DNA from: a virus
DNA length: 64,000 bases
Virus record (IMG/VR): IMGVR_UViG_3300027969_000073
Coordinates: 27,084-91,083 of that record
Direction: 5' to 3' (one strand)
Below, piece after piece: positions 9,001 to 34,452 of the stretch. The notes beneath the pieces are model-generated. The model was not told the origin of the DNA, did not search any database, and saw only the letters and a program-made list of their open reading frames with translations. A program made the position numbers and the translations under genes. Positions within the stretch are counted from its first letter, which is position 1, and each line of letters opens with the position of its first letter.

Positions 9001-12000
9001 ATTTTCAACACGATTATTAACATCAGCAGCTTTTTCTTTTAAACTTTGTATTTTATCAAAAATTGCTCCTGCTTTTTCTGTATTTACATTTTCAAAATTT
9101 CTAGCACCATTTTTATCTTTGCCAAATAATGCATTTTCTTGTACTAAAAAATTAGCAACAATAGTATCTTTAATAATTGCATCGTATGTTTGACGGTTAG
9201 AATTTACTACACTATAGTCTCCGTCTTTTTCATAAACAAAAGAAAATGTAGCAAAATTCTTTTGACCAATTGCTAACCATAAATCTGTTTTTAATCCAGG
9301 GTCTAAAGCAATTTGGTCTGCAATATGAGGCATAAATGTTTTATCATTTATGATTCCATCAATTTTAGCCATCATATCTGCAACAGAATAGCTGTCTGAG
9401 ATACGAGATAATAAGTATCCAAAAATATAACTAGGGCTTTCTTTCTCTTGAACGTTAAACTCATTCAATAAAGGTTTCCCATTTGCATTATATTTAGGGA
9501 TTGTAGCAAAGAAACTTTTTAGTTTTTGACTCATAGAAATTTTAGGGTCCATTTCTATGTAACCTTTCATCCATGAATTCTCTACAGTGTTTTCTTCTTG
9601 AGCATCCATGAAATCTTCTTCATCAGGTTTAAAGTCTACTGCACTTTCTTCTACTGTGTTAAGAGACATTGTAATTCCTCGAAGAGTCAAAGACTGATTA
9701 AATCTTTCTAATAAATCTGTAGGACGTTTGAATTGTAAGAATTTACTTCCTTGAATATCTACTTCTTCAACGTCTTTTAAGTTATTGGTTAAAACCCCAA
9801 CAAGTTTTTTCAAAGGCAAAGCAGCACTTGTGTTTGCTGCAATGTTAGCTTTAGTATCTGCGTAAATCTGAGAAACTAACATAGTGTAGAATTTATCTAC
9901 TCCTAAGTCTTTAATAATTTGTACATCACCTTTGAATTGATTTTCTTCTTTGCTACGAATAACATTGAAGAGTTCATCCATTACTGTTTGCATGTATACA
10001 AAAGCTTGACGTTCTTCTTCTGCAGAATTATATTTTTTATCAGTATTAACGTCCTTAGACATCATTCGAGCACTAGTAGGAAGTACTGTATTTCTAAATT
10101 GAATAGAATTTTTATATGCTCCTAAATCAATGTTTTCAAAAATTTGTTCAATATCAAATTGACGATTACGACTAAAGAAGATTTGAATCATTCTATTCAT
10201 CCCTTTAAAAGTTTTGAAAATCTCTTTAGCTTTTGATTTTTCAGCTGGGTCTACTTGCTCTTTAGCTTGCATGTATTCCATAAACTTATCTGCAAGTACT
10301 TCTTCTATTTCAATATAAGTTGGATATTCATAAGTGGTATTGCCCTCAGAGTCTACAATCTTTTTCAATGGTAACTCATCAGGATATTTTTCCATTGCTT
10401 CGTTAAGAATACGAATTCTTGAACGTAATGGCAATGCTAAATTAAATACAATGTGAAAAGCTTCGTGAAATTCTACACCAGCATCTGCATTCTTACTTAA
10501 AAATAAAGCAGCTTGAGTAAATAGACCGTGAAGTTCTTTTCCATTTTTACGTGCTTCTAAAAGCATTTCATAGGTTTCTTTAGGCAAATAGTTTTCTAAT
10601 GCTTCTAAAGAATGGAAAATGCGTACTGTGCCCTTACGGCCACTTCCTCTTTTGTATGCTTTTCCTAAAGTTCTTTTTAACCATTCTAAAGCTTCTTGTT
10701 GATTCCATTTTGTACCATCAACTTTAGGCTTTAACATAGTACGTACCTTGTCTGATTCAGGGCCGTTTTGTCTTTCTGTGCCTGTAGAATCAATATCAAA
10801 ACCTAAATCAAAATCATCAAAATTATCTACAGAAGTAGGCTCTTCTGGAGCAATTTCTGTACTGCTTGCAATAATACTATCTAAACTTTGTTGCTCTGCC
10901 ACAGGAGGAGCATCAGGTCTATTAGCTGCACTTTCTGAAGCTGCTACATCTACAGCACTTTTTAAGAAATTACTTGTAGCAGTTTTGATAATTGACTTTT
11001 TCTCTTCTGTTGGAGCTTCTGTAGGAGTTTCTTCTTTTTTTACAGACTGAGGAGTTTGTAATTTTTTTATATCTTCTCTAGCAAAGAAAGCTTTAGTAGC
11101 TTCTTGTGATTCTTTATTGTTTATAGAAAGTACCTGAACAGTTGGGTTTCCTCCTTTTCTAGGAGTTATAGCTAGTTTTTGAATAGACTTAATCGTTACT
11201 ACTCCATTTTCTACAGATGCAATTACTCTTGCAACTAAATTAGAATTTGGAATATTAATATCTCGAACTACTTCTTTATTAGCTATATCAACAGCTGCTG
11301 TAACATCATTGATTGGCGCACTAAAGATAGGGCTCTCATTTTTCTTATCTTTTGTGTTATTAACAGGCATTGTTCTAGACAATGCAAGATTAGAAAATTC
11401 GACAGAAGCTTTAGAAGTAGGCATTTTTGCCTCCATAATTAGCTCTACATTAGCTCTGTCTTCAGGGGACATTTGGTATGCCTCAATTACAAAAGAGCTT
11501 GAGCTAAAAAAGTTTCCATCTTCTGAATATAAATCTGTAGTAACAGCTCCAATTTGTGCTAAAGTTTGATTATAAGTTCCACTGTTAATCTTATCCCAAT
11601 CACAACGATATAGTAATTCTCCAATATAGTTTTGTGCCTCTTCAGCAGTATCAAATAATTGACTTACTACTTTACCTAAATTATTATCTTGTTTACTTAC
11701 TAAGATTTTATTTGTAGTAGTTCTTTCTACAGTAGTGTGGTAAAGCATTTTTTCAATTTTTCTACGTGCATTAAGAATGTCTTGGCTTTCTACAGCTTTT
11801 AACAAATTGGCTAAAGCTAATTTAACATCATTAAATTCTGTAGTTTCTTTAACTTTACTAGAACGTATTCGCATAGGATATAAACCATATGCAGAAGGAA
11901 CCATCATGTATGGAATACCTTCTTCTAAATTTTCTTTAATGTTTGCAAAAATTTCAGATTTCTCTAAAGCTTTTAATAACGCTTTGTTCTCTACATTTTC

Positions 12001-12386: not shown

Positions 12387-12869
12387 TTACCCTTCACTTC
12401 TTTCTAACATGTCTGCATCAAATAGCAACATGTTATCTGTAAGTTTAAGACGGTTAATTAAATCACCATATTCCCCTACTGCTGATACTTGTATCATAAT
12501 AAAGTCCTGTAGCAAAATTAACACTTTTCTTGATATATTCATACTAGCAGTCTTCTCATATTCTGCTAACAAGTCTGCTTCCATTTGGTAAGCCAATTCT
12601 AAAGCGTCTCCAATAGAAGCTACACTAGTTGTTACTGGATCTAAAGACTCTGTAGAAAGCTCGCAATTCATGTCATTCATAAACTGTTCTAACTTATTAT
12701 AATGAGTACGCTCGTCCAAAGATTCTGACAAAAAGAATTTCTCTGCACCAAAGTATCCTAATGACTTCATGCGATTAGTAAGATGTTGGTAAACATGAGA
12801 AGCTGTTAATTCTAATTTACCAAACTTATTCAATTCTTTTTCTTCTATTTCTGTAAGTAATTTTTCCAT
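12387..12869 (-). CDS. Ferritin-like protein
   Basis: 160 aa four-helix pattern ELTASHVY...GAEKFF..ESLDERTH...YQME...FIMIQ..VGEY resembling the ferroxidase centre. Confidence 0.8.
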   Translation of the reverse strand: MEKLLTEIEEKELNKFGKLELTASHVYQHLTNRMKSLGYFGAEKFFLSESLDERTHYNKLEQFMNDMNCELSTESLDPVTTSVASIGDALELAYQMEADLLAEYEKTASMNISRKVLILLQDFIMIQVSAVGEYGDLINRLKLTDNMLLFDADMLERSEG

Positions 12870-17005: not shown

Positions 17006-19882
17006 TTATTGGCCCATTACACTTTCTAGACTAAACTGAGCAGGTACAAAGTATTGTTCAGAACCTAAACCTGACTGATAAACTACTGCATCCATTTCAT
17101 CTCCTGTGCCAAATATTAAATTGTTTTTCATTATTTGTACTGGCAAACTTCCTGACATATCTAATGGTTTAGAAACAACTGGTTGTCTTACATATTGACC
17201 ATTAGCATCTACAATTATTTTATCTACTGTCATCAATACTTCTCCTTTACTTACTTTGTAATTAATAGTAAATCCTGATTGAGTTCCATCTGCATTTTGT
17301 TGCCATACTGCAGGTGGCTCAGTAATTTCTGTAGCTAAATGATTATTTTCAATAGCATCATTTAATCGAGCTCCCATTTCTAAATAACGTTCTCTACGTT
17401 CAGGATTAGAAATAAGGGCAATGTTGGCGTAAGATTCTAAGTTTTTATTAAATGTTACTCCTGCTTCTGGGTCACTTGCTTGTGCTTCTAAAGCAGCTTT
17501 ACCAAATTTAATGTAATTATCTTTAGCTCTTTCTGCTGGGTTAATTGTAGTACCTTCTACTACTGTATATAGGTTTACAGGGTTAGCATCGTACCAAGCT
17601 TTTTTCTCAGCAGCACTAGCACTAATTTCAGTATCAGTTAAATCTTCTGCTTTTTTACCTAGTCTATGAGCACTAATCATTTTAGCAGCATAAGCATCAG
17701 CACTTTGAGAACCTGGTTGGAATTCTTTTTTAATATTGTATCTCAGAATAGGATTACCATTTTGATCATTTCCTGCATAATGAGGAGTTTCTTCGTAAGC
17801 ATTTAAATCAAATGTTTCTCTTAAATTAGGATTAGTAATTACACTAGTTTTACCTGTTCTATCATCAAAGTTTACTCGTTCAATTGAAGAGCCTCCTGTA
17901 GTATTACTCTTAGCATAGTTGATGATATCTGTAACTGCATTGCCTGTATATTTATCAAAACGTGTGTCCATATATATTTCAGGAGAAGCTACTGCAAATT
18001 GTGTTCTAAGGTTAACTAAATAATTATCCATTACAGATTGCCCAAATTTAGCTATTGCATCAGGCTGAACATTTTCTAATTTTTTCCAATCAAGACCTGT
18101 ACCTGCAACATTTAATCCTTTATTTACAATATCTGTAGTTAAGAAATCTTTATTATGCTCTTGAATAATTTGAATCATTTTTAATGGATCTTTTTGAGCT
18201 TTTTTTTCCCAAACTTCTTTCATAGTTTGGTCTGCAGTTAATTCAATAATATTTTCAAAAGTTTTAATATCAGAGCTTTTAGCAACACTAAGTTCGAATT
18301 TATCTCCTAACATTGTTTGTAACTCGTCTATAGCAGCTTCTTTTTCTGCTCCTGAAGCACTTGCTACTTTTTTCTTTTGCAATGCTATTTTAGAATCATA
18401 GTCAGCAAGTTTTTGGTCAAACGCTGAAATTCTAAGGTCAAGAATTTTATATTGAGAAAAAGTTTTTTCTGTCTCGTTAATTCTTTCTACAATTGGCTGG
18501 CCTATAGATAAAGTTGTATTTAAATCTTCTACTAACCAAGCTCCTTGACGAGCTCTTGCCATATCTGTTAACTCATCTAAAAACTCTGCTTCCATTCCCG
18601 TAGATTTTACACCATGTAAACGTGAATACAAATCTTGACTTACTCCAGCTTCTTTAATAGCTGCTCTGTTACCTGTAGCATCTGAAGAACTTGTAATTCC
18701 TTTAGTAGAAGATTTAACTATATCTGAGTTAATTCCCCCAATAGCATTAAACTCTTCTAAAGTTTTATTGTTCTTTTCTCTTCTTGCAGTTGCTGCTGGG
18801 TCAGTTAAATTATCTGTACTGTATTTAATATTACGATAGTCTACAATATCTGCTGCAGCATCGCCAATAACATCAAATTTATTTTGACCAAAGTCTACAT
18901 ACAATTTTTCTGAAAAATCATCTAAACGTCCTTGTGCAGCATACTCTTGGTATCCTTCAAGAATATTTGCTTGTAAAGATTTAGCTTCTTTTAATTTTGC
19001 TTCTAAAATTTCTCTTTCACTTTTATCTAAAGTAGGAATTTTTAATTTTTCATTTATTTGAGCAATTTGGTCATCTACTTGACCAAATGCTCCTCTAATA
19101 ACATTTTCTTTAAATTGTTCGCCTGTTGCTGCATTAGAGTTAGCATTATAGTACCATTCTCTACGATCATAATCCTCTTGCCAATTTTTGTATTTATCAG
19201 AAGTTTTTAAAAAATTTGTTATTTCTGTAGCAATTTGCTCTCGATTTTTTTCAGTAACTTCAACATTTAATCTTTGTAATGTATCAGCATTAAGTTGACC
19301 ATATTGACCTAAACTATTAATACGTTGTTCAGGAGTCATTCCTGCTAATTGTAAAGATTCTTTTCGAATGTTTTCTTCTTCATTAGCTAAAGGAGGCTGA
19401 ACATTAATTTGATTATAAGCCTCTTCTTTAGGGTCATAGTTAGTACCTTTAAATTGGTGATTAGTCTTAAATAACCAAGTGTCATAATCTCTTTGAGTAA
19501 TTCCATTCGGTTTACCAATTTTTTCTTTCATCTCTTTTTTAGCTTCTTGTAAAGCTGTATAATTTCCTTGAATAGAAACTAATTCAGGGTCTTTTGTATA
19601 CAGTTTTTGAAGCCCTGCTAATTGCTTAGCAGCTTGAGTATAATTTTTAGAGGTTGCTAAGTTTTGAGCAATCTCGTCTCTTTTTTCTTTAAGAGTTTGC
19701 ATTAACTCTTTACTTCTAGGATCGTCTTGATTTAATTTAGAAATTTCAAAGTCAGCTGCATCTAGAGCTGCTTTGGTAGTTTCTAATTTTTCATACATCT
19801 GAGATAAAGGTTCTGCAAACGCTTCGTATCCTAAAGGTTTGTACTCAGTTTTTACTGGAGTAGAAAATGGTGTAATTGCCAT
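17006..19882 (-). CDS. Virion cargo protein
   Basis: 958 aa, coiled-coil rich; lies between cargo genes. Confidence 0.55.
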   Translation of the reverse strand: MAITPFSTPVKTEYKPLGYEAFAEPLSQMYEKLETTKAALDAADFEISKLNQDDPRSKELMQTLKEKRDEIAQNLATSKNYTQAAKQLAGLQKLYTKDPELVSIQGNYTALQEAKKEMKEKIGKPNGITQRDYDTWLFKTNHQFKGTNYDPKEEAYNQINVQPPLANEEENIRKESLQLAGMTPEQRINSLGQYGQLNADTLQRLNVEVTEKNREQIATEITNFLKTSDKYKNWQEDYDRREWYYNANSNAATGEQFKENVIRGAFGQVDDQIAQINEKLKIPTLDKSEREILEAKLKEAKSLQANILEGYQEYAAQGRLDDFSEKLYVDFGQNKFDVIGDAAADIVDYRNIKYSTDNLTDPAATARREKNNKTLEEFNAIGGINSDIVKSSTKGITSSSDATGNRAAIKEAGVSQDLYSRLHGVKSTGMEAEFLDELTDMARARQGAWLVEDLNTTLSIGQPIVERINETEKTFSQYKILDLRISAFDQKLADYDSKIALQKKKVASASGAEKEAAIDELQTMLGDKFELSVAKSSDIKTFENIIELTADQTMKEVWEKKAQKDPLKMIQIIQEHNKDFLTTDIVNKGLNVAGTGLDWKKLENVQPDAIAKFGQSVMDNYLVNLRTQFAVASPEIYMDTRFDKYTGNAVTDIINYAKSNTTGGSSIERVNFDDRTGKTSVITNPNLRETFDLNAYEETPHYAGNDQNGNPILRYNIKKEFQPGSQSADAYAAKMISAHRLGKKAEDLTDTEISASAAEKKAWYDANPVNLYTVVEGTTINPAERAKDNYIKFGKAALEAQASDPEAGVTFNKNLESYANIALISNPERRERYLEMGARLNDAIENNHLATEITEPPAVWQQNADGTQSGFTINYKVSKGEVLMTVDKIIVDANGQYVRQPVVSKPLDMSGSLPVQIMKNNLIFGTGDEMDAVVYQSGLGSEQYFVPAQFSLESVMGQ

Positions 19883-19902: not shown

Positions 19903-22900
19903 TTAAGCTTTTTTAGCTGCTCTTCTTTTTTGGTATTCCATTGCTATCTGCTGTAAATATGGATTAGCTTCTACTCCATACTCTCCTCCTCCATGCATGT
20001 TAGCATAAGCTAAAGCAGCTAAATTAGCTTTGTCAGCATTAGTTTTTTGTCCAATACCTTCTAGTCCTGCTTGCAAGTAATTTTGTTTAGCAGCATCAAT
20101 AGCAGATTTTAATTCAAATGCTTTTAAATTAGCTTGAGATTTGTTTTGACTATTAAACATGTCTGTTTGCATTTTACTTGTGCCATAAGCATTTTCAGCT
20201 TGAGTTCGAATACCTGCTTTAGTATCAGCTTCATTTTTAGCCAACATAGCTCTGTTAGTTAAATAAGCTCCTGCTCCTGGTGCAGCATTCATCATTCCTC
20301 TTGCTGCTCCTGCATAAGCCTCTTCAGCTGCTCTTAGTTGAGGATTAATATTCATTCTGTATGGGTCTACAGGTGTAAATAAATTTTTAGCATTAGGTAC
20401 TTTAGATTTTTTACCAAAAATTCCTTGGTATAAATTATATCCAGCTCCTAAATTACTTCCTACAAATTGCCCTAAAGTTTCATTCATAGAAAACTTATCT
20501 TTCATTGCATCTTGTTCAGTCTTGTAATCAGAGAATTGATTTTTCTTTTTTTCTTCTTCTTCTTTTTCAATCTCTTTTTCTTCTTTTTTTGTAAGATAGT
20601 TTGGCATTACTGGCATATTTCCTGTATTCCAGTCGTAGGCATTTCCTGTACCTGTTAGCAATGTACCATCATTATTTAAAACTACTCCTTTATTATTTTC
20701 TCCTAAAATTTCAGGAGCTTGATAGTTTCCAAAATCATTAGGAAGAGCATCCATATCTTCACTATAATTAAAAGAAGTAGGTAAAGTATTTTCTTGTGCA
20801 GAATAATAAGGATTGTTTAGATTAGGATTAAATTGTCCGTAATCAATGTTACTAGGACGTAATAATCCGCCTTTTGGATAAAGATTAGTTAATGGCTGCC
20901 CCATAGGACCTGCATTATGCATATATCCCCCTGCTCTAAATCCTTGATAAGAAGTATCTTGCATACCTGAAATAGGATTAGTTTCTTGCATTTTTGTAAA
21001 AGCTCCTAGAGCATCTGTTCCACCTTGTACAGCAGCTTGTCCTAATACTCCTAATGTATTATTAGAAGCTTCTTGTGGAATTTGTGTTTGTACTCCAGTT
21101 AATCTTTCTTGATTAGCAGCATCCATTATAGCTTGTTGTTCTGCTCTATCTTGTCTATTTCCTTCAATGCCTCCTTTAATACCTCCAGCAAATAGTCCAA
21201 CACCAGCACCTATTGCGCCCCCAATAGCAGTTCCAATTCCAGGAACTATACTACCAATAGTAGCTCCCATAGAAGCTCCCTTACCAGCTGCTTTTAAAGC
21301 ACCTGCGCCTGCTTGAGTAAAGGCATCGTTGTTTTCTTGCATAAATCCGCCAAAGTCGTACATGTTACCTCCTTTTTTAAATTTTTCTTGGTAATTTACA
21401 TTTTTTTGTATATAATCTTCTCTTTCTTGCGTGAATTTATCTAAATTAGAATTTGTAGGAGTAAGAACTTCAACCCACTTTCCCGTTTTTGAATTATATT
21501 GTTTTCCTATTGTCATAGAATTATTAGAAGGTTCTCGTACTAATTCATTAGATAAAGAATCAATTGCTCTTACAGGTAATGTAGGTAACGTAGAAAAAGT
21601 TTTAGGCATTCCTTGATATGTGCCATCTGGTAATAAAAATACATCAAAATATTTTAAAGGCATTCCATGCTTCATTGCAATATTATTGTCTTTTACAGGA
21701 ATAGCTTTAGGAGGTATAGTTTTAGGTTTTTTCTCATCTTCTGGGTCTCCCATTAATCCTCCACCGTATTCATACATAGTGCCTCCACATTTATAAGACA
21801 TAGGGCCTCCATATCTCATCATACCTTGTTGCGCTTGCATTTGCTCCATCATAGCAGGATCCATTTGTTGTCCTTGCATTGAAGGGTCCATTTGACCTTG
21901 TTGTTGCATCATAGCCATTTCTTCTGGAGAAGGCTGTTCCATTGGAGGTTGAGCTTGCTGTTCTTGAGCTTGCATCATTTGAGCCATAAACTCAGGATGT
22001 TTTTCAGCCATTTTAGCAATGTCTTTTTGTAACTCTTCTTCTTTTTGAGTCTCTTGAGCTTGTGCTAACTTGTCTAAATCTCTAGCAATAGCATTTTGCT
22101 CAATCGTATCAGTTTCTCTTCTAGAATCTGTTCTATTGGCTTTCTTAGATGCATCTGCATAAGTCTTTCCTACAAAACGAGAGTTTATATTAAACTGTTT
22201 TGCAATACCTTTTGAAATAGTAATGTCGTCAGAATAAATAAATTCTTGGGCATTGTTTTTAGTTTCACCTTCTTGTACAAGGTTCATCCCTCCATTTGGA
22301 TTCATACCTTGTGGTATTCCTCCTAAAGGATTTTCTTCATGAGAACCTCCTTCATTAAATTCTGTTAATTGATTCATAAGGCCTCCTTGTGCAAATTTCT
22401 TTTCTTTGTTTCCTCCAAAAATAGTATTACCTCCTCCAAACCATCCTTTAGGAATTGAAGGCGCTTTTCCACTTAAATCAGGCATTTGATTTGTAGGACT
22501 AGCAGTAGTTGTGTACGGTACTATTTCTGGAGTAGTTTGCATATTCATTGGAATGTCTATAGGTCTTAAAGGCCTAATGCCTAAATTATTTATAGGTTGC
22601 ATTCCTTGTTGTATTTCTTCTTGTGGGATTATAGGAGTTTCTGTAGTAGTTGCTGCAGGGATTGCAAATTTAGTCATGTCAACTTTTGCAAGTCTTTTAG
22701 GAATAGAATTTACCATGCCCATGCCAGCGCTAACATAATTTTTTGCTTCTGCATAACCTGCTCTTTGAACTGCTTCAAAATGTTCTTTAGGAGTTTTTGC
22801 ATCAAATACACCGTTTTTTCTATAACGAGGATTGTTGATGTAAAAATCTATTTGAGCTTTTAATCCTTCTTCTGGGGTATTGTATAAACGGTATTGCCCT

Positions 22901-24555
22901 GTTTTAGGACCTGTCCAATTATCATCAGCTTTAATACCTCCAAAATTATTAGCACGTTTTACTAATGAAGAAGTACCATTTCCTGTTTCTAAAAGGATTT
23001 GTGCAACTACTCCATCAATACTTAAATTATCATTAGGACCTAATCGTCCCTCTGCTTTAGCTTGGTTTACATACTGAGTAACAGTTTGATAAATCAATGC
23101 TGTTTTTTCTGCAACACTCATATTAGCCATAGAAGCTAAAGTAGGAGTATCTAATTCTCCTCCTCCTTCAAAAATATTAACATAAGGGTTTCCTAAAAAA
23201 CCTCCCATTTCATGTTGTACTTTATGAGGGTGTCCTTGAACACTTACTGCTTGATTTCCTGGAGTTTTTTCAAAAGCTCCTGATGCATGTCCGTATCCTA
23301 GCCATGCTTTGTATGCTGCGTTTGACTTAAAGTTCATATGTCCTCCTTTTGCGTAAACTGCTGGGTATTGTTCTAAAGAAGAAGAATAGATACTATCATG
23401 TAATCCATTACCACCTTTTTTAAAACTGTCTTCAGGTAAATTAAATTTTCTATTAAATTGTCCACCGTTTTTAAATTCTCTTGAATCATCAGGCATTATA
23501 ATATTTCCAAATAAAGAATGAGTACCATTGTCTCCTTTATATATAGTAGGATATTCTTCTCCTATTCCAAAAGAAACGGGTTTTATATTAAATTCATTAG
23601 GACGACCATCTTCTTTAATAGGTAAAGAAAATTTTCTTAATCTATCAGTATCTATATCAGAAAAATTATTGTCTTTTGGAGCAATATCATTCTTTTTAAC
23701 TCTTTCTAAATTTTGTTGAATTTTATTAATTCCATAATTAATAGGGTATTTAGCGTATACCTCAGCATTAATTACAGGAGTCATTTCTACTCTTCCTGAT
23801 TCTGATTGGTCTGCATAACGATAATTATTTTTACCTTGAGTCATGTCTGCCATAACACTTCCTCTTGCTCCTAATGTTAAGTTACTATGGGGTTTAGTAT
23901 AATTTATATCACCTTTTAACCCATACCCCCAAGTAGCTTTATTTTGTCCTACATTTCCTGCAATATGACCTGCTTGACCAGGAATTACTCTATCTTGTAA
24001 AGTTCCGTAAAGGTCTTTATTTTGTAATATAGCTTTTAAAAAAGCTCCTGATGAACCTCCTAAGCCATTTCTTGTTTCAAACTTATAACCCCCTCCTGCT
24101 TCTACATTTCCGTATCCTTGACGCAATTTACTATAACCTGCTCCTAAATCAAATCTACCATATGGTCCTGACCAATCAGGATCAGGATTCATGTTAGTAG
24201 CACCTGCTTTAAATTCTAAGCCCATGTCTGCTTCACGAGGTCCTCTAGTGTAATCTGTGTATGTAGTAGGTTGCCCAAATTGTATATTAGAAACTACCTC
24301 TTGAGGATTTTCAAATTTACTTGGGTCAGCATTATATGCTCTAGAGTTATCAGCATAACTTTGAGTAAAATCCAAACTCATTGGATAATATAATCCACCT
24401 GGACTAGGTTTATGAAGAAAATTTCCTGTAGATATTCCTGCTCTATATCCTAATGAATTTAAATAATTATCATAGTTATATACCAGAGGAGAAGTATCAA
24501 ATCTCCAAGCATCTGCTTTAGGTTTTCGAATGAATTTCTTTTTATCGTCTGGCAT
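19903..24555 (-). CDS. Multidomain virion cargo protein with GH73 (FlgJ-like glucosaminidase) domain and glycine-zipper TM hairpin
   Basis: AQILLETGNG...NNFGGIKA...AGYAEAKNY (GH73); GATIGSIVPGIGTAIGGAIGAGVG; Q/M-rich linker; many xxGG motifs. Confidence 0.75.
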   Translation of the reverse strand: MPDDKKKFIRKPKADAWRFDTSPLVYNYDNYLNSLGYRAGISTGNFLHKPSPGGLYYPMSLDFTQSYADNSRAYNADPSKFENPQEVVSNIQFGQPTTYTDYTRGPREADMGLEFKAGATNMNPDPDWSGPYGRFDLGAGYSKLRQGYGNVEAGGGYKFETRNGLGGSSGAFLKAILQNKDLYGTLQDRVIPGQAGHIAGNVGQNKATWGYGLKGDINYTKPHSNLTLGARGSVMADMTQGKNNYRYADQSESGRVEMTPVINAEVYAKYPINYGINKIQQNLERVKKNDIAPKDNNFSDIDTDRLRKFSLPIKEDGRPNEFNIKPVSFGIGEEYPTIYKGDNGTHSLFGNIIMPDDSREFKNGGQFNRKFNLPEDSFKKGGNGLHDSIYSSSLEQYPAVYAKGGHMNFKSNAAYKAWLGYGHASGAFEKTPGNQAVSVQGHPHKVQHEMGGFLGNPYVNIFEGGGELDTPTLASMANMSVAEKTALIYQTVTQYVNQAKAEGRLGPNDNLSIDGVVAQILLETGNGTSSLVKRANNFGGIKADDNWTGPKTGQYRLYNTPEEGLKAQIDFYINNPRYRKNGVFDAKTPKEHFEAVQRAGYAEAKNYVSAGMGMVNSIPKRLAKVDMTKFAIPAATTTETPIIPQEEIQQGMQPINNLGIRPLRPIDIPMNMQTTPEIVPYTTTASPTNQMPDLSGKAPSIPKGWFGGGNTIFGGNKEKKFAQGGLMNQLTEFNEGGSHEENPLGGIPQGMNPNGGMNLVQEGETKNNAQEFIYSDDITISKGIAKQFNINSRFVGKTYADASKKANRTDSRRETDTIEQNAIARDLDKLAQAQETQKEEELQKDIAKMAEKHPEFMAQMMQAQEQQAQPPMEQPSPEEMAMMQQQGQMDPSMQGQQMDPAMMEQMQAQQGMMRYGGPMSYKCGGTMYEYGGGLMGDPEDEKKPKTIPPKAIPVKDNNIAMKHGMPLKYFDVFLLPDGTYQGMPKTFSTLPTLPVRAIDSLSNELVREPSNNSMTIGKQYNSKTGKWVEVLTPTNSNLDKFTQEREDYIQKNVNYQEKFKKGGNMYDFGGFMQENNDAFTQAGAGALKAAGKGASMGATIGSIVPGIGTAIGGAIGAGVGLFAGGIKGGIEGNRQDRAEQQAIMDAANQERLTGVQTQIPQEASNNTLGVLGQAAVQGGTDALGAFTKMQETNPISGMQDTSYQGFRAGGYMHNAGPMGQPLTNLYPKGGLLRPSNIDYGQFNPNLNNPYYSAQENTLPTSFNYSEDMDALPNDFGNYQAPEILGENNKGVVLNNDGTLLTGTGNAYDWNTGNMPVMPNYLTKKEEKEIEKEEEEKKKNQFSDYKTEQDAMKDKFSMNETLGQFVGSNLGAGYNLYQGIFGKKSKVPNAKNLFTPVDPYRMNINPQLRAAEEAYAGAARGMMNAAPGAGAYLTNRAMLAKNEADTKAGIRTQAENAYGTSKMQTDMFNSQNKSQANLKAFELKSAIDAAKQNYLQAGLEGIGQKTNADKANLAALAYANMHGGGEYGVEANPYLQQIAMEYQKRRAAKKA

Positions 24556-24598
24556 AATACTAAATTTGAAGTAAAGTTACAACTTTTTTTCTTATTTT

Positions 24599-27040
24599 TT
24601 AATCTTGTTTTGTTTGTTGCCAAGGATTAGCTAATAAAGCTGTTCCTCCTACTGCACCTGTTATAGGAACTAGCGCAGGAAGTGTTCTTGCTTTTTCTGC
24701 AAGAAATTTAGCAGGCCATCTTTTTAATAATTCTTGAGTATCTTCTGATGTTTTTGTTTTTCCTATTTGACTTTCTAAATTATTAATATTATTGAAATAT
24801 TGATTTTTTATTTTTTCCAAATCTGCTTCAGAACCTCCTGCATTTTTTATAGCACGATATTCTGCTTTCATATTATTAAATAATAAATCACCTTCTTTTT
24901 TTAATTTAGCTGCATCTAATTGGTTAATATGTTCTTCTGTAATTGGAGTAGTAAAATAATCATTAATACCTTGAGTTTTTAAATCCTCTTTAAGTTGACG
25001 TAATCTTACTTCAAATTCTGTAGGTTTTGCATGATAATCTAATCCTGTTACATAAGGATCTAAAGTGTTTTCTTCTAGATGAGATCTAGTAAGCCAATTA
25101 GGAAGAAGTTCATCAGAATTAGTTCTTTGATGGCTTAATTCATGCCAAGTTGCTACTGGATTACTTATTTGAGCAGTTCCATTATCTTCTTGATACATGT
25201 ATTCGTTAGTATTAGCATTTGCTACTTTTTGCTTAAATGTAGGAGTATGTCCTGGCATATAAGCAGCATTTGAACTATGCTTACTAGTGTAAACTCCTGA
25301 AGCTCCTTCAGGAACTTGACTAGGATTATATTCTAATTCATTTTTAAGATTTTCTAGTGTAACCTTTTTGTATTGTTCAATATCTACATCAGGATATTCT
25401 TCTTTCATTATTCTTTTAAACTCAGGACTATCATAATATGACTTCATATTTTCAACATACTCTTCTTGCAAAGATTTGTTAGTCTTAGTATTAAAAGGAA
25501 TTATTTTTCCACTTTCAGATTCTTTATAAATAATATTTGGATTAGTCTCTAAATCATGTCCGTAAGTACCAAATACTTTTTCTTCCTGACTTATTTTTTT
25601 AAGGTCCTTAAGTTTATCTGTTGCTTTTAATACTCCTTTTGCATCTTGTGCTAGAGATTTTACTCCTGTTTTTGTTGCACCTATTGAAGGTATAAATCTT
25701 AATCCTTCTAATCCTGCATTCATATAATTACCTGCTTGTAAATTTCTATATACTTTATCTCCTGCATCTAGTAAATTAAGATTAGAATTTAATGCATTTC
25801 CTACAAGATTTCTTCCTTGAACTACTCCTGGATCTATGCCTGCCATACGCATTTCATTAATATTACGAGGCATGTTTTCTACTCCTCCTCCTGATACAGC
25901 ATACTCAAAAGCAGTAAAAGGATTAGTAGCTATTTCCCAAGCTCTACTTGGTCTATCATCAGGGTTAAATTCTTTTATAGTTCCTTGATTAGGATTTCCA
26001 TAAACAACGTTTTCCCCTAAGTATTTATATTCTTCTATTTTTTTTGGATTTAAAAGAATTTCGTTTTTTTGTTCTTTAGTAAGGGTAGCAGAATTTTTTA
26101 TTGCATTAATAGTTTCTGCTCTAACAGCTTGGTTTTCTGCAGCACCTTGATTTAATTTATTTTGCATACTTTTTTGCATGCCTACATCAAAACTATTTTT
26201 AGGTACAGTACTCTCGGCTACTTGTGGCTTGTTATCTAATAACGGGGCATAAGTACGTTGGTACTTATTAGTAGTTGTTGTCATTGGAGTAGCTTGTGCA
26301 TTTAATAACGCAGTACGCTTTCCTGTTGGGTCTTTTACAGGAATAAAACCTTTAGTATGTTCAGTTTGAATATACCATTGATTGTTTACTTTTTGATAAG
26401 TAGCTCCTGGTCTACCTTTGTATGTATACAATTGGCCTCCATCAGCATATTCTCTATTAATCTTTTTTTCTTGTTTTAGCATTTGCTCAGTAGGTTCTTT
26501 TCCTGAACCTGCGTTAGCTCTGATATTATCCCACAATCCTCTTGGAGAGTAGCTACCGTCTGCACGTTTTAGCATACCTCCTTGAGCATATACATTAGGA
26601 TTATCAGCATGCCATTTTTTAGTTGCAGCAACTCCTTCTGCAATAGTATTAGCGTTTGCTTTATTTGTTAAATTAATAGTGTCCCATTGGCCTTTATCTT
26701 CAGCAGGATGATTAACCATTATATTTCCGTCTGCACTTCTGTAAATTCTATGGTACTCACCATTAGCAGTTAAAAACTTTCCTCCATTTTTGTAATAGTT
26801 TCCTAATGCTGATGCATAAATGCTGTCTCTAATTTTACCTTGACTAGTTCTATCTACTAATGGACCTCCATCTAAAAAAGGTAAACTAGTAGTGTCTCTA
26901 AAGATTTGAGTTCCTTTATCAAAATGCATTGGCAATATTGGGGCCATGTATCCTCCGCCTTTATAGTAAGCATCTTGGGCATTCTCACTAGAGAATATGC
27001 TGTGACCATTTAATGTTTGTCTAGGTTGCGCTTTTTTCAT
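24599..27040 (-). CDS. Modular virion cargo protein with C-terminal zincin metallopeptidase-like domain
   Basis: WHELSH...PTEFEVRL (HExxH plus distal E); repeated YxxGG motifs; hydrophobic C-terminus. Confidence 0.6.
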   Translation of the reverse strand: MKKAQPRQTLNGHSIFSSENAQDAYYKGGGYMAPILPMHFDKGTQIFRDTTSLPFLDGGPLVDRTSQGKIRDSIYASALGNYYKNGGKFLTANGEYHRIYRSADGNIMVNHPAEDKGQWDTINLTNKANANTIAEGVAATKKWHADNPNVYAQGGMLKRADGSYSPRGLWDNIRANAGSGKEPTEQMLKQEKKINREYADGGQLYTYKGRPGATYQKVNNQWYIQTEHTKGFIPVKDPTGKRTALLNAQATPMTTTTNKYQRTYAPLLDNKPQVAESTVPKNSFDVGMQKSMQNKLNQGAAENQAVRAETINAIKNSATLTKEQKNEILLNPKKIEEYKYLGENVVYGNPNQGTIKEFNPDDRPSRAWEIATNPFTAFEYAVSGGGVENMPRNINEMRMAGIDPGVVQGRNLVGNALNSNLNLLDAGDKVYRNLQAGNYMNAGLEGLRFIPSIGATKTGVKSLAQDAKGVLKATDKLKDLKKISQEEKVFGTYGHDLETNPNIIYKESESGKIIPFNTKTNKSLQEEYVENMKSYYDSPEFKRIMKEEYPDVDIEQYKKVTLENLKNELEYNPSQVPEGASGVYTSKHSSNAAYMPGHTPTFKQKVANANTNEYMYQEDNGTAQISNPVATWHELSHQRTNSDELLPNWLTRSHLEENTLDPYVTGLDYHAKPTEFEVRLRQLKEDLKTQGINDYFTTPITEEHINQLDAAKLKKEGDLLFNNMKAEYRAIKNAGGSEADLEKIKNQYFNNINNLESQIGKTKTSEDTQELLKRWPAKFLAEKARTLPALVPITGAVGGTALLANPWQQTKQD

Positions 27041-30000
27041 TATAGTACTTGTGGGTCGTAATACGAAATTAAACGATTCATTATAAACTCTTTATTGATA
27101 TTATTATCAAAATACAAAGTTACTATAAAATGAGTACTTCTAAATCTTCCTTGTTGAGATACAGAATTTATATCTCTAGGAAGTTTAACTCTCCATTTAT
27201 CAAATCTTCTTTTAATTCTCCCTGAAGAAAAAGGTATAATACCTGAATCTTGTACTTGTGTTTGGATTCTAAATCCTGTGATAGTTTTAGTTCTATCTAC
27301 TTGTTTTAAATCATCACGCACAATAGAATTAAACTCTAATGTACGTAAAATTTTATTAATATCAGCATTAGGATTAATTACTAATGTAATAGACGCTTCT
27401 TCTACATTACCATAAAATTCTCCCCAATTACCAATATTATGAGTATATACAATGTTTCCTTTTTTAGGATTTGCTGATAAAAGTATATCACCATTTTCTA
27501 TCCACATTTTAGGAGTAGCGCTATACTTTGAAGAAAATTGTTGCATTAATTCATCGTATACTATTGAAGTAGCATTTAATCTAGAAATTATATTTACTAA
27601 ATCTGCATATCTATCTAACTGTTCTTTTAAATCATCTGGAATACTAGAAGCAATAAATTCAATAGTAACTACATAATATAATCCTCCGCTTGTAATAATA
27701 TCTCCTGGATAATAAGTGTCACCTCCTATTACTACTAACACTCTAGGAGTAGTAGATAAGAAAGTGAAGATTACCTCGTCATTAATTCTGTCTTTTCCAA
27801 TAGTAACTCCGTAACCTTTTATTGGGTTATCTCCTTGATTTTCTTTTCTATAAAACACTCCATCAGGTAGTGCTTGTAAAAAACTGTGTATTCCTTTTAA
27901 TTCAGAAAGAGGATTATTTCCTTGTCCGTTAAATACAAAAATCTTTCTGTGAATACCATCAAATAAATATATACCAGAGTCTGTAGTTTTTATACCCCAT
28001 TGGTGAATAGCTCCATGTTCTTTTGAAATATATTGATGCTTACCAAATCCTTGACCTGTACCTAATTGCGTAGGAACTCCATCATTAGTAGAAGTAATAG
28101 CTGCACGATTGATAGCATAAGCTCCAAATCCTCTATCTTGAATAAAATAAACTGTATCTTTCCAATTGACGATTTTATTAATTGGACCATAGTCATCTAT
28201 ATCATAATAATTATTTACACCAAATTTTGTCCATGCATCAATTTTATCTCCATTGATTTTTACATTTGATAAATATGCTCGGATGTCATTAGCAGCTGAG
28301 GTATTATCAAAGTTTAATGGTTTAGTAAAAAATACTACATTACTATTTTCTTGAGAATACACTGTATTATAAGCGTACATGTACAAGTTTTCTCCGTACT
28401 GTGTATAAGTATTATTAGTTTCTTGTCTAAGTACTGTATTTTGAGTATCGTTTAAAGCTTCTGTATATTTAACTCCAGTTTTTAAAGTAGCTCCTTGTGC
28501 TAAATCAATATTTATAGAAGACTCTACTGGGAAAGCTCCTGTTGTAGAATAAGAAGTTCCAAAAGCATCAGGAGTACCTGTACCAGCATTTTTATAAAAT
28601 ATCGTATTTAACTCAAGAGTAGTTCCTTGAAAAGTAAACATGTTTATAAAAATGTCTCCTCCAAATACTTTAGGATTAGTTTCTGTTACAGGAATAATTG
28701 GAGAAGCAGAAATAAAAGTATTAGCCGCTAATACATCATCTGTGTAACCTCCGTAAACTTCTTCTTTAGGAAGAACAATATCTACAATAGGAGTATATAA
28801 ATAATTAGCTCCTGAATATGGAGTTGATGTAGAGGCTGCTACATCTGGTCCAAAATTATCATAAGCTGAAGAAGCTGGAATTGGCTGTAAAGGGTCAATT
28901 GGATCAAATAATAATTTTCCTATTCTACCTATAATTCCTGTAGCTCCTTTATTAATTAAACGAGCAGGGTCAGCTGGACCAGGTCCGTTTTGTGGGTCAT
29001 TTATTCCTGAGCCTCCTACATTATAAGTTGCAGAGTAATTTCGTAGATAAGTTGCTGTACCTCCTACATCAAATGGCCCAATTATATTATCAGTGTATTC
29101 TGAAGTAGAATACATTCCTACTTTTGATTTACCATTTGCCCAGATTTTAATATTTTCAGGAGATAAACTATCAAGATTATAAGTAGTTCTCATAGTCAAT
29201 CTGTAATCTTCTGCAAATGCGCATAAATCTTCAGGACCTGATAAATCTACTGAAGGTATATAAGTTCCTCCAGGCTGATAAAATGCTCCTGTAACAAGTA
29301 CACATGCATTATTAGAGGAGGTAATTAATTCAGGTATATTATCAAAATTGTAAGAAATATCTGCACTATGGTAAGCAATAAAGTCTCCTGGAATACTTCC
29401 ATAAGTATCGACTGCTCCATGTAAATGCTCAAAATGAGTTCCTATTACATTTTCAGGGTAAATATGATAAATATCACTACCTCCTGATATTACTGTTCCT
29501 CCTACAGGTTGAGTTAAATCAAAATCTAATCCACTACCAGTAGGTCCAATTTCAATGTCTGCAAAAGCTTTTATAATACCTGAAGTAATACGTCTTTTAT
29601 CTACATCAGTTCTTTCTAATCTTACTATTTGATAACTTTCAACTTCTGATAAAAAGTCTGGGCAAGTAGAAAAGTCTAAAGTAAATTCTACTCCTAAAGC
29701 ATACCCATAAGTAGTAGTGCCGCTAGAAGTAGTTAATGGAAAATAATTAGTACCTGAATTATTGGTTGTTCCATCTTGATCGGAAATATCTGGAAATTTA
29801 ATATCACATAAGTGCTCTACAAAAGAACTTTCTCCTTTTTTATTGTAAAACACTATTCCAAAACGATAAGTTTCTCCACGTTTATATCCTCGAAGTAATC
29901 CTGATATAAAAGGTGAAGCATTATTTGGAAAAGTAATATTTTGATAAACACCTGCTCCATCATCTAAATCATGAGGAGGAGGAGTAGGACCATAGTCAGG

Positions 30001-31299
30001 AACATTAGCCTGGTTTACAAAACCATTTGTAGGACTTCCGTCTAAAGTAAATTGTTGTAAGTGAAATTTAAAACTAATATTAGAACTTTCCCCTCCTAAA
30101 GTTACACCGTCAGATTGATATTTAAACTGGTCATCACTAAACCATCCGTCACTCCATTGAGCATCACGATTGTAACGTTGACAAAATTTATCTCCATCTG
30201 TAATAGCTCCTGAATCGTAACGTACAATAGAAGTATCAAAAGTTTCTTCTAATTCTGCTAGTCGATCTTGAATAGAAAAATTAGAGGATTTTAAATTAGC
30301 AATTACTAGTGAGCTATCTTTTTGAGTAATACTTTTAGCTGTTTTAAAAGCAAAAGATTTTAATATATATTCTGAATACTCTATAATATAAGCAGTCTCT
30401 TCATTTCCTGTAATTAGGAAATTTACTAGAGAACCTGTAATAGCTTTTGTTTCTATAAAACTTACTTTAGGAGTTCCTCTAAAGTCTTCATGAAAAATTA
30501 AAAATATATCTATTTCTGAAAAATCAGAATAGTTAGTTACATTTACATTAATGCTTAAAGCTTTTCCTGAATTAGTTCCTTTAGGCATTCCAATATATTG
30601 AGCAGACTGAGTCAGTAATTCAGACTTAGAAGTAACATGTATTAAGTTACTTGGTGGAGATATTAAAGATTCTTTACCATCAGCTGTTCTTACTCTATAA
30701 GCTACTTGATATTCTCCTACTAATAAATTACCTCCATTAAGAATGTTATTTAATAAAGGCTGAACAAAAATAGTATCTGGATAAATATCAATTAATCCTG
30801 TAGGAGTTGTTAATAGTACAGGTGAGCTAATATTTATAGAGCGTAAGTAGTTATTATAGTCTGTCCAATAAACTCTTTGAATTCCTGCTTGTTCGTATCT
30901 TCCTAATGCTTCTATTGGAAAGTTTTTGCTAAAGTTTAAATCAGCACTATAGTAAAGTAAATTAGGATAACTGGGTAATATTTCTCTAGTAGCTTCATCA
31001 TATTGAACTTCATAAATCCAACCGTTAGTATTAGAGTCATCTGCAACAAATAAAATAATTCTACTTCTAATTGTAGTGTATCCAATAATTTCTGGAATAC
31101 CTACAGCAGTTCCCCATTCTCCTGTTTTAGGAATTTCAAAAGATTCTACGTTACCTTGAATATTAGTAAATGCTCCCATAGATTCTCCTTTAGTAGTGGA
31201 GATTCTAATATCAACGGCATCTATATATAAATTAGGGGGAAGACTGTCGTAAGCAGCATCCATGTTCATTCCTCCGTATGTAGTAACGTGTGCTTCCAT
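27040..31299 (-). CDS. Tail stabilisation / muzzle protein (P22 gp10-like, crAss-like)
   Basis: 1419 aa; N-terminal TYGGMNMD, VYWTDYNN, YKRGETYRFGIVFY; adjacent to tail tubular gene. Confidence 0.8.
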   Translation of the reverse strand: MEAHVTTYGGMNMDAAYDSLPPNLYIDAVDIRISTTKGESMGAFTNIQGNVESFEIPKTGEWGTAVGIPEIIGYTTIRSRIILFVADDSNTNGWIYEVQYDEATREILPSYPNLLYYSADLNFSKNFPIEALGRYEQAGIQRVYWTDYNNYLRSINISSPVLLTTPTGLIDIYPDTIFVQPLLNNILNGGNLLVGEYQVAYRVRTADGKESLISPPSNLIHVTSKSELLTQSAQYIGMPKGTNSGKALSINVNVTNYSDFSEIDIFLIFHEDFRGTPKVSFIETKAITGSLVNFLITGNEETAYIIEYSEYILKSFAFKTAKSITQKDSSLVIANLKSSNFSIQDRLAELEETFDTSIVRYDSGAITDGDKFCQRYNRDAQWSDGWFSDDQFKYQSDGVTLGGESSNISFKFHLQQFTLDGSPTNGFVNQANVPDYGPTPPPHDLDDGAGVYQNITFPNNASPFISGLLRGYKRGETYRFGIVFYNKKGESSFVEHLCDIKFPDISDQDGTTNNSGTNYFPLTTSSGTTTYGYALGVEFTLDFSTCPDFLSEVESYQIVRLERTDVDKRRITSGIIKAFADIEIGPTGSGLDFDLTQPVGGTVISGGSDIYHIYPENVIGTHFEHLHGAVDTYGSIPGDFIAYHSADISYNFDNIPELITSSNNACVLVTGAFYQPGGTYIPSVDLSGPEDLCAFAEDYRLTMRTTYNLDSLSPENIKIWANGKSKVGMYSTSEYTDNIIGPFDVGGTATYLRNYSATYNVGGSGINDPQNGPGPADPARLINKGATGIIGRIGKLLFDPIDPLQPIPASSAYDNFGPDVAASTSTPYSGANYLYTPIVDIVLPKEEVYGGYTDDVLAANTFISASPIIPVTETNPKVFGGDIFINMFTFQGTTLELNTIFYKNAGTGTPDAFGTSYSTTGAFPVESSINIDLAQGATLKTGVKYTEALNDTQNTVLRQETNNTYTQYGENLYMYAYNTVYSQENSNVVFFTKPLNFDNTSAANDIRAYLSNVKINGDKIDAWTKFGVNNYYDIDDYGPINKIVNWKDTVYFIQDRGFGAYAINRAAITSTNDGVPTQLGTGQGFGKHQYISKEHGAIHQWGIKTTDSGIYLFDGIHRKIFVFNGQGNNPLSELKGIHSFLQALPDGVFYRKENQGDNPIKGYGVTIGKDRINDEVIFTFLSTTPRVLVVIGGDTYYPGDIITSGGLYYVVTIEFIASSIPDDLKEQLDRYADLVNIISRLNATSIVYDELMQQFSSKYSATPKMWIENGDILLSANPKKGNIVYTHNIGNWGEFYGNVEEASITLVINPNADINKILRTLEFNSIVRDDLKQVDRTKTITGFRIQTQVQDSGIIPFSSGRIKRRFDKWRVKLPRDINSVSQQGRFRSTHFIVTLYFDNNINKEFIMNRLISYYDPQVL

Positions 31300-33840: not shown

Positions 33841-34452
33841 TTAACTTAAAAGTTGATAATATTTTTTAGTTAATTCTGTTCTATGAGATAAACCATTTGT
33901 TCCTCCGTTAATTCTTTTAGTAACTGTAAGAATAGATGCATCATCCATTTTTAAACATAATGGCCAAAGTTTATTTCTTTCAAAATAAAATAAAGCTGAA
34001 GCAAATGCATAATCAGTAGCTACTACATTAGGATTAGAGATTATTTCAGGTTTATCAAGATATTTAGAAAATGCTATATAATTATCTTTTCCAGTTAATT
34101 GTAGAGCACCTCTTCCACGATACTTATAGCCTTCTCCTGTATTCTCAGGACCGTTACCCATTCTGTTAGCATAAACTTTGTTAGCAATTTTTTCAGGCTG
34201 TCTTTGGTAAGCCATTGCTATTACTTTTGTAGGAAAATACTTTTTAAATATTTTCATTAATCCGTCTGCAGAATAGTTTAAGTTTTCTGTAAATATACTA
34301 AAGCTTCCTGTTTCATGTGCTAATTGTCCAAAGAAATGTGCCGTTTGTTCTTTGGACAATTTGTAATAAACCATTGCTTTAGTTAAAGTTTCTTTACCAA
34401 ATACTCCATCAGGAGTAGCTCCTATAATTTCTTGAAATTTTGCTAAGCTCAT
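33841..34452 (-). CDS. Endolysin, GH19 family
   Basis: HFFGQLAHETG, YRGRGALQLTGKDNY, TKRINGG; short N-terminal peptidoglycan-binding-like DGVFGKET. Confidence 0.9.
   Translation of the reverse strand: MSLAKFQEIIGATPDGVFGKETLTKAMVYYKLSKEQTAHFFGQLAHETGSFSIFTENLNYSADGLMKIFKKYFPTKVIAMAYQRQPEKIANKVYANRMGNGPENTGEGYKYRGRGALQLTGKDNYIAFSKYLDKPEIISNPNVVATDYAFASALFYFERNKLWPLCLKMDDASILTVTKRINGGTNGLSHRTELTKKYYQLLS

Follow-up and report, generated by a model that had tools for sequence, protein, structure and literature searches.

This report concerns a 64,000-nucleotide stretch of a crAss-like phage genome (positions 27,084 to 91,083 of IMG/VR record IMGVR_UViG_3300027969_000073; hereafter the window), and a seven-residue motif that recurs in two cargo proteins encoded there, P0001 (1550 amino acids, aa) and P0002 (813 aa). 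The source genome is 91,083 bp long with about 32% G+C, and the window holds its virion module on the minus strand. Comparison with homologues supports the view that both proteins are strings of swappable modules with the motif at almost every joint, and we propose that the heptad Phi-x-x-G-G-x-[M/L], in which Phi is Tyr or Phe and sometimes Met or His, may be the junction motif of C1-type cargo proteins in the Crassvirales. How the joints work is a more tentative matter. The reading that we prefer, in which they stay uncut and are recognized by a phage partner, has in our estimate a probability of roughly 0.4, and it ranks ahead of a processing site, a passive hinge and, last, a capsid-loading tag.

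An earlier note, made from the sequence alone, listed 14 copies of the motif in P0001 and five in P0002. All of these peptides are present where they were reported, from YKGGGYM, the first, to YPKGGLL, the last (Table 1), but FKKGGNG and FNEGGSH lack the final hydrophobic residue, so that the strict pattern [YFHM]xxGGx[MLF] gives 12 copies in P0001 and five in P0002. The other 46 open reading frames (ORFs) of at least 80 aa in the window have none. When the pattern was widened slightly and applied to all 118 ORFs of at least 60 aa in the whole genome, the same 17 copies and one other match came back, and no small ORF of the genome has a credible motif. In 5000 composition-preserving shuffles the mean number of copies was 0.34 for P0001 (maximum 4) and 0.06 for P0002 (maximum 2), which means that 17 copies stand where about 0.4 would be expected, and the enrichment over the rest of the proteome is clear. 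The shuffles and the rest of the genome together rule out chance or composition as the origin of the motif. Recent DNA duplication is ruled out as well, since the codons at the 17 sites are unlike one another and none of the short arrays reported by Tandem Repeats Finder overlaps a motif site.

The same enrichment is found across the family. A word-indexed search collected 120 C1 homologues of 852-2305 aa, and 116 homologues of P0002 were compared as well. The core [YFW]xxGG occurs 1359 times in the first set against 147.5 expected, with up to 22 copies per protein, and 779 times in the second against 86.8 expected. The logo reads [Y/F, less often M/H]-[A/N/K]-x-G-G-x-[M/L/I/F]. Among the 5395 GG dipeptides of 353 cargo homologues, 47% have Tyr, Phe or Trp exactly three residues before the first Gly (background 8.7%), the offsets one to either side of this position are not enriched, and 45% have Met, Leu or Ile two residues after the second Gly. 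Given this rigid register of the aromatic and Met/Leu/Ile positions, the heptad is, on sequence grounds, a defined short linear motif and not Gly-rich composition. The commonest distance from copy to copy is 7 (308 gaps, that is, tandem heptads), with further peaks at 12, 17, 23, 27-28 and 47. Tandem heptads agree better with multivalent recognition than with single cuts. The motif also occurs within the first 17 residues of 40 of 375 cargo proteins, typically behind a short basic leader (MKRSLKKYDNGGK..., MKKAPKLKMADGGM...), and within the last 13 residues of 14, while none of the 375 ends in GG.

In the cultured Steigviridae (crAss001, DAC15 and six others) the motif is less dense, with 1-7 copies per C1 protein where 0.5-1.0 would be expected (seven of these phages have 4-7), and it comes in flavours of its own, [SK]A[YF]GGxL and FA[ED]GGG[IL], exemplified by SAYGGPL, KAFGGSL, NAFGGWL and FA[ED]GGG[IL]H. 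Such lineage-specific flavours suggest a co-evolving partner. Orthologues of the second cargo protein, C2 (gp46), have no motif in seven of the eight members of the crAss001 group. Searches of the motif-rich pieces against Pfam and PHROGs gave nothing even at lax thresholds. The FFxxGGxS motif of nonribosomal peptide synthetase carrier domains was considered and dropped as unrelated.

The copies are found where modules meet. In P0001 the GH73 domain lies between motifs at 462 and 705/721 and the Gly-zipper segment between 1066 and 1206, and in P0002 the short unit MLKRADGSYSPRGLWDNIRAN... lies between those at 151 and 198, as the earlier note had described. One P0001 copy, FNEGGSH, sits within the conserved folded portal-binding domain and not in a linker. 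In an AlphaFold2 model of P0002 built from 52 sequences, with a mean predicted local distance difference test score (pLDDT) of 68.5, four of the five motifs fall in stretches with pLDDT below 50 (aa 1-86, 149-165 and 193-201) and the fifth, YKNGGKF (83-89), straddles the end of the first of these stretches. The confidently predicted modules are aa 87-148 (pLDDT mostly 72-86, with a short dip), a helical hairpin at aa 166-197, aa 204-250 (pLDDT at least 84) and aa 500-790 (about 90 or higher). The aromatic residue of the motif tends to end a helix in this model, with the following structural element often starting at the +6 residue.

Homology between relatives tends to break off at the motif. 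Coverage of P0001 by its homologues shifts stepwise at motif clusters: it falls from about 100 proteins to 3 after aa 934, right behind the triple cluster MRYGGPM/YKCGGTM/YEYGGGL, and rises again after aa 1059. In an all-against-all BLAST of the 120 homologues, 30% of the internal ends of high-scoring segment pairs lie inside a motif against 7% of random positions, 46% lie within 5 aa of one against 14%, and the median distance is 9 aa against 53 aa. Natural N-termini tell the same story, as the N-terminal 40 residues of 229 proteins align internally elsewhere and the alignment starts within 6 aa of a motif GG in 159 of them, compared with 11% at random. When 353 proteins were cut after the motif GG, 3581 segments resulted, of which 1826 are 10-70 aa long and form 301 clusters. 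The larger clusters are recurrent mini-module families, at least 14 in number, which occur at widely varying relative positions. They include QFPRPYSLPEDSFKQGG, the unit that we call KRADG, the N-terminal MKK..GTxIFRDTTALPFADGG, PMGQLTEFNxGG (found before the portal-binding domain), SFNNPGFxALPxxVQ and, from the region of FRAGGYM and YPKGGLL, ..NAGPMGQxLTNLYxxGG, which is present in 51 homologues.

Gene boundaries coincide with the same sites. Some relatives have a single gene for the motif-bearing part, of 1809 aa with 20 motifs or of 1625 aa with 19, and other relatives divide it between two or three genes. The second genes begin at modules that elsewhere are internal and preceded by a motif. 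In locus L004, for example, the gene starts with MNFKSDAAYKAWL..., which is YAKGGH-MNFKSNAAYKAWL in P0001, and in L070 the boundary is at the position equivalent to ...FGGNK, among the motifs before the portal-binding domain. In L008, which has the undivided gene of 1809 aa, the product matches P0002 aa 37-468 and, further along, the modules of P0001. In essence, P0002 would thus be the N-terminal portion, split off here, of a C1 gene that relatives keep whole. The injected set is highly variable, since relatives carry different effector domains. Precomputed Pfam annotations place ART-PolyVal (PF18760), ADP-ribosylating exotoxin (PF03496), SET (PF00856), YkuD (PF03734), SLT (PF01464) and phage lysozyme (PF18013) domains in homologues P0008, P0099, P0153, P0166, P0168, P0185, P0204 and P0223. 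Of the earlier idea of a cassette polyprotein, then, the virion cargo built of cassettes with the motif at their borders and the swappable effector content have held up, while cutting after GG and capsid loading have found no support.

The stand-alone homologues of inter-motif modules that the earlier note had suggested looking for exist for at least one unit, KRADG. In P0002 this 47-aa unit, together with its bracketing motifs, reads YAQGG-MLKRADGSYSPRGLWDNIRANAGSGKEPTEQMLKQEKKI-NREYADGG, and it has the consensus MLKRADGSYSPRGLWDNIRANxGSGKKPTKEMLxQEKKI. A phmmer search against 1.84 billion representatives returned 1031 clusters at E <= 1e-3, 852 of them at E <= 1e-10, with 57-86% identity among the 150 best matches listed. 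The unit is found at the N-terminus, in the middle or at the C-terminus of proteins of 61-2000 aa, and when internal it is nearly always bracketed by motifs. Where the unit forms a natural N-terminus, the protein begins MAKKDLIKRADG... without the Gly-Gly, and where it forms a natural C-terminus, the last residues are ...KKINKNYK. Scanning viral contigs gave 229 relatives, and in 61 of the 80 loci examined among these KRADG is a free-standing basic ORF of 46-65 aa, with 26 distinct sequences, none of which has the motif (loci in the range L016-L082). The unit matched no family in Pfam or PHROGs even at lax thresholds, and only viral hypothetical clusters in the Atlas. The CARG1 portal-binding piece, used as query in a first scan of viral contigs, gave no relatives.

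The one free-standing KRADG locus that was checked, L028, is crass-like by its terminase and portal. There (L028:5977-8156) several tiny genes with a common MKAKK/MKANKK leader form a cluster that includes the KRADG gene, upstream of that for the terminase. Two products of the cluster have a Gly-Gly motif right behind the leader (MKAKKSVYQSGGKM..., MKAKKYNGGGKM...), and the cluster also encodes a 230-aa basic protein with several motif copies. In another contig (L053:3000-8700) the ORFs are mirrored about position 5830, e.g. 3525-3680 on the minus and 7983-8138 on the plus strand, both of 51 aa, a pattern suggestive of a palindrome created in assembly or of a terminal inverted repeat.

The 1550-aa and 813-aa genes can be regarded as encoding cargo (ejection) proteins because of PF25725 and GH73 and because of an alignment to the portal-wing-binding segment of crAss001 gp45. 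P0001 matches PF25725, the crAss_CARG1 portal-binding domain, with E 1.7e-25 and 90 bits (cutoff 27), and PF01832, the GH73 glucosaminidase domain, with E 9.4e-16. Phmmer against the PDB aligned its residues 723-862 to residues 433-564 of chain 7qog_M, which is gp45 (E 1.3e-15). By these matches P0001 is the crassvirus cargo protein C1, and most likely it resides in the virion bound to the portal and the tail barrel, a location demonstrated for crAss001 gp45 (PMC10172136) and extended here by homology. Its first 340 residues are rich in Gly, Tyr and Asn, look beta-rich and are common to only about seven homologues; this region could be a putative outer-membrane-inserting part of the ejection apparatus.

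Structural work on crAss001 gives the joints a possible function. The PF25725 domain of gp45 binds the portal inside the capsid, cryo-electron microscopy resolves gp45 residues 214-245 (a helix at rings R1/R2 of the tail barrel) and 425-552 (at the portal), and gp45 is read in that study as one chain threading the portal (PMC10172136). In the gp45 sequence, residues 214-245 are flanked by SAYGGPL (207-213) and FAEGGGL (260-266), whereas residues 425-552 start with a variant motif, AFGGWL (425-430), and are followed by FAYGGDT (559-565); both resolved docking segments are therefore motif-bracketed modules. We propose that the cargo would be built as beads on a string, in which autonomous modules of 10-70 aa, probably docking peptides, alternate with larger enzyme or membrane modules and variable effectors. 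At nearly every joint the motif would lie in a disordered linker, often as two or three tandem heptads, with the Gly-Gly acting as a hinge and the two fixed hydrophobic positions as a handle for a phage partner. The modules could thus be laid one by one on the twelve-fold inner faces of portal and tail barrel, as for the two motif-flanked gp45 segments, and the chain would thread the portal and tail channel N-terminus first. The motif may also be a permissive in-frame seam in evolution, where modules can be added, dropped, exchanged or divided among several genes.

That the joints stay uncut is in line with gp45, for which residues 425-552 are reported as continuous across the Gly-Gly of AFGGWL, a variant motif inside a segment resolved in the mature virion (PMC10172136). 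Several points weigh against this reading. Most gp45 motif copies lie outside the reported resolved segments and so lack stable, symmetric docking in the mature virion (PMC10172136), and the sole uncut example, AFGGWL, is a variant motif that borders a folded domain and may be protected. The gene boundaries and the free-standing homologues of modules suit a polyprotein equally well, and two HExxH domains travel with the cargo, leaving room for a protease. Finally, the partner itself is putative.

The strongest competitor, which we hold to be possible but doubtful, is that these proteins are polyproteins cut at the motif by a phage protease, either in head maturation or after ejection. The bond most likely to be cut would then be that between the two Gly residues, because Pro is tolerated just after them, and the products would be mini-proteins and enzymes acting separately in the outer membrane, periplasm, inner membrane and cytoplasm. 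The location of the motifs in accessible, disordered linkers in the P0002 model, the free-standing and motif-free KRADG, and the coincidence of gene boundaries with motif sites in relatives all agree with this, and the short basic leader followed by a motif at N-termini, seen also in the tiny L028 proteins, resembles a cleaved leader. Gly-Gly-directed processing is familiar from viruses and bacteriocins. However, we recognized no maturation protease in Pfam or PHROGs, no Peptidase_C48 match in the genome and no protease PHROG among 10 virion-module ORFs. Tandem heptads would yield useless 7-mers, no cargo protein has the GG end described above, and gp45 is reported as a single resolved segment across AFGGWL in virions (PMC10172136). 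The crAss001 mass spectrometry, as published in the text, gives no motif-spanning peptide and so favours neither reading.

The cutter proposed by the earlier note was a zincin packed with the cargo. Virion-packed zincin-like domains are known in crass-like phages and have been proposed to process such proteins (Drobysheva et al., 10.1101/2020.03.07.982082; Iyer et al., PMC5512222), and two cargo proteins of this phage have HExxH motifs, HELSH in P0002 and HEAFH in a 3119-aa protein. The P0002 domain occurs in 18 homologues, all with an unchanged HELxHQRTN; this motif falls on a predicted helix, and the domain has pLDDT above 90 in the full-length model. This domain had no match in Pfam or among PDB sequences, where a profile search gave low-complexity noise. 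Foldseek and VIA-align searches for a zincin fold, with the whole P0002 model and with the domain alone, found only helical-hairpin look-alikes, the searches being dominated by the hairpin. A second AlphaFold2 model was of middling confidence (pLDDT 68). The domain is missing from about 98 of the 116 motif-bearing P0002 homologues and is present in homologues without any motif (P0141, P0142, P0176), which speaks against it as the enzyme. Likewise, the RNA-polymerase-type cargo that is the subject of the processing proposal has no strict motif. Iyer et al. (PMC5512222) note in addition that the N4 virion RNA polymerase is packed unprocessed. It is conceivable, with about the same doubt, that the heptad is the code by which a virion-associated protease chops up the C1-type cargo of many crassviruses, releasing some twenty peptides, mini-proteins and enzymes. 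If true, a tailed phage would have a Gly-Gly-coded polyprotein strategy for delivering a swappable effector set, and its products would include a 47-aa peptide for which other crass-like phages have a gene of its own (46-65 aa).

A less likely explanation is that the GG is only a flexible linker and that the aromatic and Met/Leu residues cap the ends of the adjoining modules with hydrophobic side chains, with no recognition involved. This would account for the hydrophobic residues kept at protein ends without Gly-Gly, as in MAKKDLIKRADG... at the N-terminus and ...KKINKNYK at the C-terminus, and for the helix-ending aromatic and element-starting +6 residue of the P0002 model. Nevertheless, the aromatic keeps a fixed distance of three residues ahead of the Gly-Gly, the offsets on either side not being enriched, tandem heptads enclose no module, motifs behind a 6-10-aa leader or before a short tail have no module to cap, and the flavour is lineage-specific. 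A purely passive hinge is unlikely because of this rigid register, the empty heptads, the terminal copies and the flavours, and the numbers of N- and C-terminal copies given above likewise argue for more than a hinge.

Least probable of all is a multivalent peptide binding the inner face of the HK97-fold capsid or an assembly core, likened to encapsulin cargo-loading peptides or the T4 capsid targeting sequence, to which the high copy number, the terminal copies behind basic leaders and the confinement of the motif to virion cargo genes would lend themselves, but which is weakened because the 958-, 1364- and 3119-aa cargo is presumably packed too yet has no strict motif, as have seven of the eight crAss001-group C2 orthologues none, because heptads 7 aa apart cannot all reach separate capsid subunits, and because no peptide density on the capsid wall is described in the crAss001 paper (PMC10172136). 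A general packaging tag likewise fails on the RNA-polymerase-type cargo of the same phage, which lacks the strict motif.

The features discussed are collected in Table 1. Family searches recognized the crassvirus major capsid protein (PF23898) and the ring proteins R1 (PF24228), R2 (PF25702) and R3/4 (PF25710), the terminase was assigned via phrog_6681, and the P22-type match of the portal was weak and below cutoff. The genes are arranged in the order muzzle, 813-aa gene, 1550-aa gene, ORFs of 958 and 1364 aa, ferritin-like gene, 3119-aa ORF and an ORF of more than 1004 aa. The same placement of C1 after the muzzle is found in crAss001 and nine related loci, and in these nine loci the order of ring protein R1, muzzle, motif-bearing gene or genes and a protein of 904-997 aa with 0-2 motifs is constant.

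Table 1. Features of the window (64,000 nucleotides), with positions in the window and, where given, in the protein.
Feature	Position	Strand	Remarks
Muzzle protein	27040..31299	-	PF25731, E 3.8e-135; adjoins the 813-aa gene on its upstream side; no strict motif
Cargo protein P0002, 813 aa	24599..27040	-	string of mini-modules with 5 motifs (aa 1-210), then folded modules and C-terminal HELxHQRTN domain
Five P0002 motifs	26429..26965	-	YKGGGYM 26945-26965, FLDGGPL 26858-26878, YKNGGKF 26774-26794, YAQGGML 26570-26590, YADGGQL 26429-26449
KRADG mini-module with its two bracketing motifs	26429..26590; P0002 aa 151-204	-	most conserved unit of P0002
C-terminal domain of P0002 with HELSH (25130-25144)	24641..25573; P0002 aa 490-800	-	candidate zincin-like, mostly helical, confidently folded in the model
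Cargo protein C1, P0001, 1550 aa	19903..24555	-	PF25725 and PF01832
Gly/Tyr-rich N-terminal module of P0001	23536-24555; aa 1-340
Motif-rich mini-modules of P0001	aa 361-468
GH73 domain of P0001	aa 516-617
CARG1 domain of P0001	aa 726-844		followed by Gln/Met-rich stretch
Further module of P0001	aa 935-1058		little common to relatives
Gly-zipper segment of P0001	~aa 1080-1133
C-terminal module of P0001	aa 1330-1520		conserved
Motif cluster 1 of P0001	23152..23475	-	FKNGGQF 23455-23475, FKKGGNG 23404-23424, YAKGGHM 23335-23355, HEMGGFL 23194-23214, FEGGGEL 23152-23172; brackets mini-modules of 17, 23 and 47 aa, members of families present in many homologues
Motif group leading into the portal-binding domain	22339..22443	-	WFGGGNT 22423-22443, FAQGGLM 22375-22395, FNEGGSH 22339-22359
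MRYGGPM, YKCGGTM, YEYGGGL	21754..21819	-	three copies, starts 8 and 7 residues apart
Tandem pair FKKGGNM and YDFGGFM	21340..21381	-	precedes the Gly-zipper module
FRAGGYM (20920-20940) and YPKGGLL (20860-20880)	20860..20940	-	follow the Gly-zipper module
958-aa cargo protein, C2 position	17006..19882	-	0 motifs; directly downstream of the 1550-aa gene
Ferritin-like gene	12387-12869		PF00210, E 1.7e-11
3119-aa ORF	3016-12375		HEAFH at aa 637, DFDID at aa 2012
Endolysin-type gene	33841-34452		phrog_181, E 4.9e-57

Three other genes of the window deserve mention. The ferritin-like gene is flanked by two giant cargo genes. The 3119-aa ORF has neither a Pfam match nor the Gly-Gly junction motif, and it agrees with published descriptions of a crass-like virion RNA polymerase that has a zincin-like region. 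A separate endolysin-type gene is present in the tail region, so the phage has a lysis enzyme besides the cargo-borne GH73.

Crassviruses rank with the most abundant phages in the human gut, and it is still an open question how they store several megadaltons of protein and then eject it. A heptad at the joints of the first-ejected cargo offers a concrete, mutable handle, as it predicts where the chain bends, docks or gets cut, and it would explain how effector modules such as cell-wall hydrolases and ADP-ribosyltransferases are exchanged between phages. The catalogue of 10-70-aa modules, one of which occurs in more than 1000 protein clusters, provides candidate virion-docking or host-targeting peptides with no described function. 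The C1 family PF25725, the injected multidomain "polyvalent" proteins and the idea of their processing were already known. The conserved heptad at the joints, the catalogue of bracketed mini-modules and the free-standing form of KRADG are apparently new, and literature searches on the motif, the KRADG sequence and crassvirus cargo processing found no description of them.

Gly-Gly is a classical processing site, used by adenain, by pS273R of African swine fever virus, by the potyviral HC-Pro (YxVG|G) and by C39 double-glycine leader peptidases. These systems resemble the motif described here in having a hydrophobic residue at a fixed distance upstream, and in being repeated in a multi-module precursor or placed behind a short N-terminal leader. 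They differ in that no homologous protease was found in this genome, in that the hydrophobic residue would be at P5 and not P4 if the cut came after GG, and in that tandem heptads and the fixed +6 Met/Leu have no counterpart in them; cleavage here is putative. Phage T4 has a capsid targeting sequence, and its prohead protease processes internal and ejection proteins. Such processing is also described for the giant phage SPN3US (PMC10052503). The resemblance lies in a short peptide code common to packed and ejected head proteins. The codes of T4 and giant phages (L/I-x-E, A/S/G-x-E), however, are cut by a known prohead protease, mostly near the N-terminus, whereas the motif of the crassvirus cargo is internal, repeated, Gly-Gly-based and without a known protease.

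The polyvalent proteins (Iyer, Burroughs, Anand, de Souza and Aravind 2017, PMC5512222) are alike in being large, multidomain and codelivered with DNA, with a mosaic of fast-changing domains, and they have in common with this cargo ADP-ribosyltransferases (PF18760 in homologues), cell-wall hydrolases and HExxH domains. An architecture of this type is seen in P0001, with GH73, CARG1 and Gly-zipper, and in relatives that gain or lose ADP-ribosyltransferase, SET, YkuD, SLT and lysozyme domains. That work defines domains, and the terms "crAss", "linker" and "glycine" are absent from its text, while the present cargo shows a fixed heptad and many mini-modules of 10-70 aa. Another of the closest known counterparts is crAss001 gp45 (PF25725; PDB 7QOG and related entries; Bayfield et al. 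2023, PMC10172136), in whose description neither the motif nor processing is mentioned. P0001 is nearly twice as long as gp45, has a second motif-bearing companion gene, and contains GH73 and other modules that gp45 lacks; it has 12-16 copies of [YF]-x-x-G-G-x-[ML] against about 5 of A-[YF]-G-G-x-L or F-A-E-G-G-G in gp45. Those of gp45, a protein of 90.8 kDa, lie near residues 207, 260, 329, 424 and 559. Both have a homologous portal-binding domain and a Gly-rich hydrophobic segment, and both are encoded after the muzzle gene.

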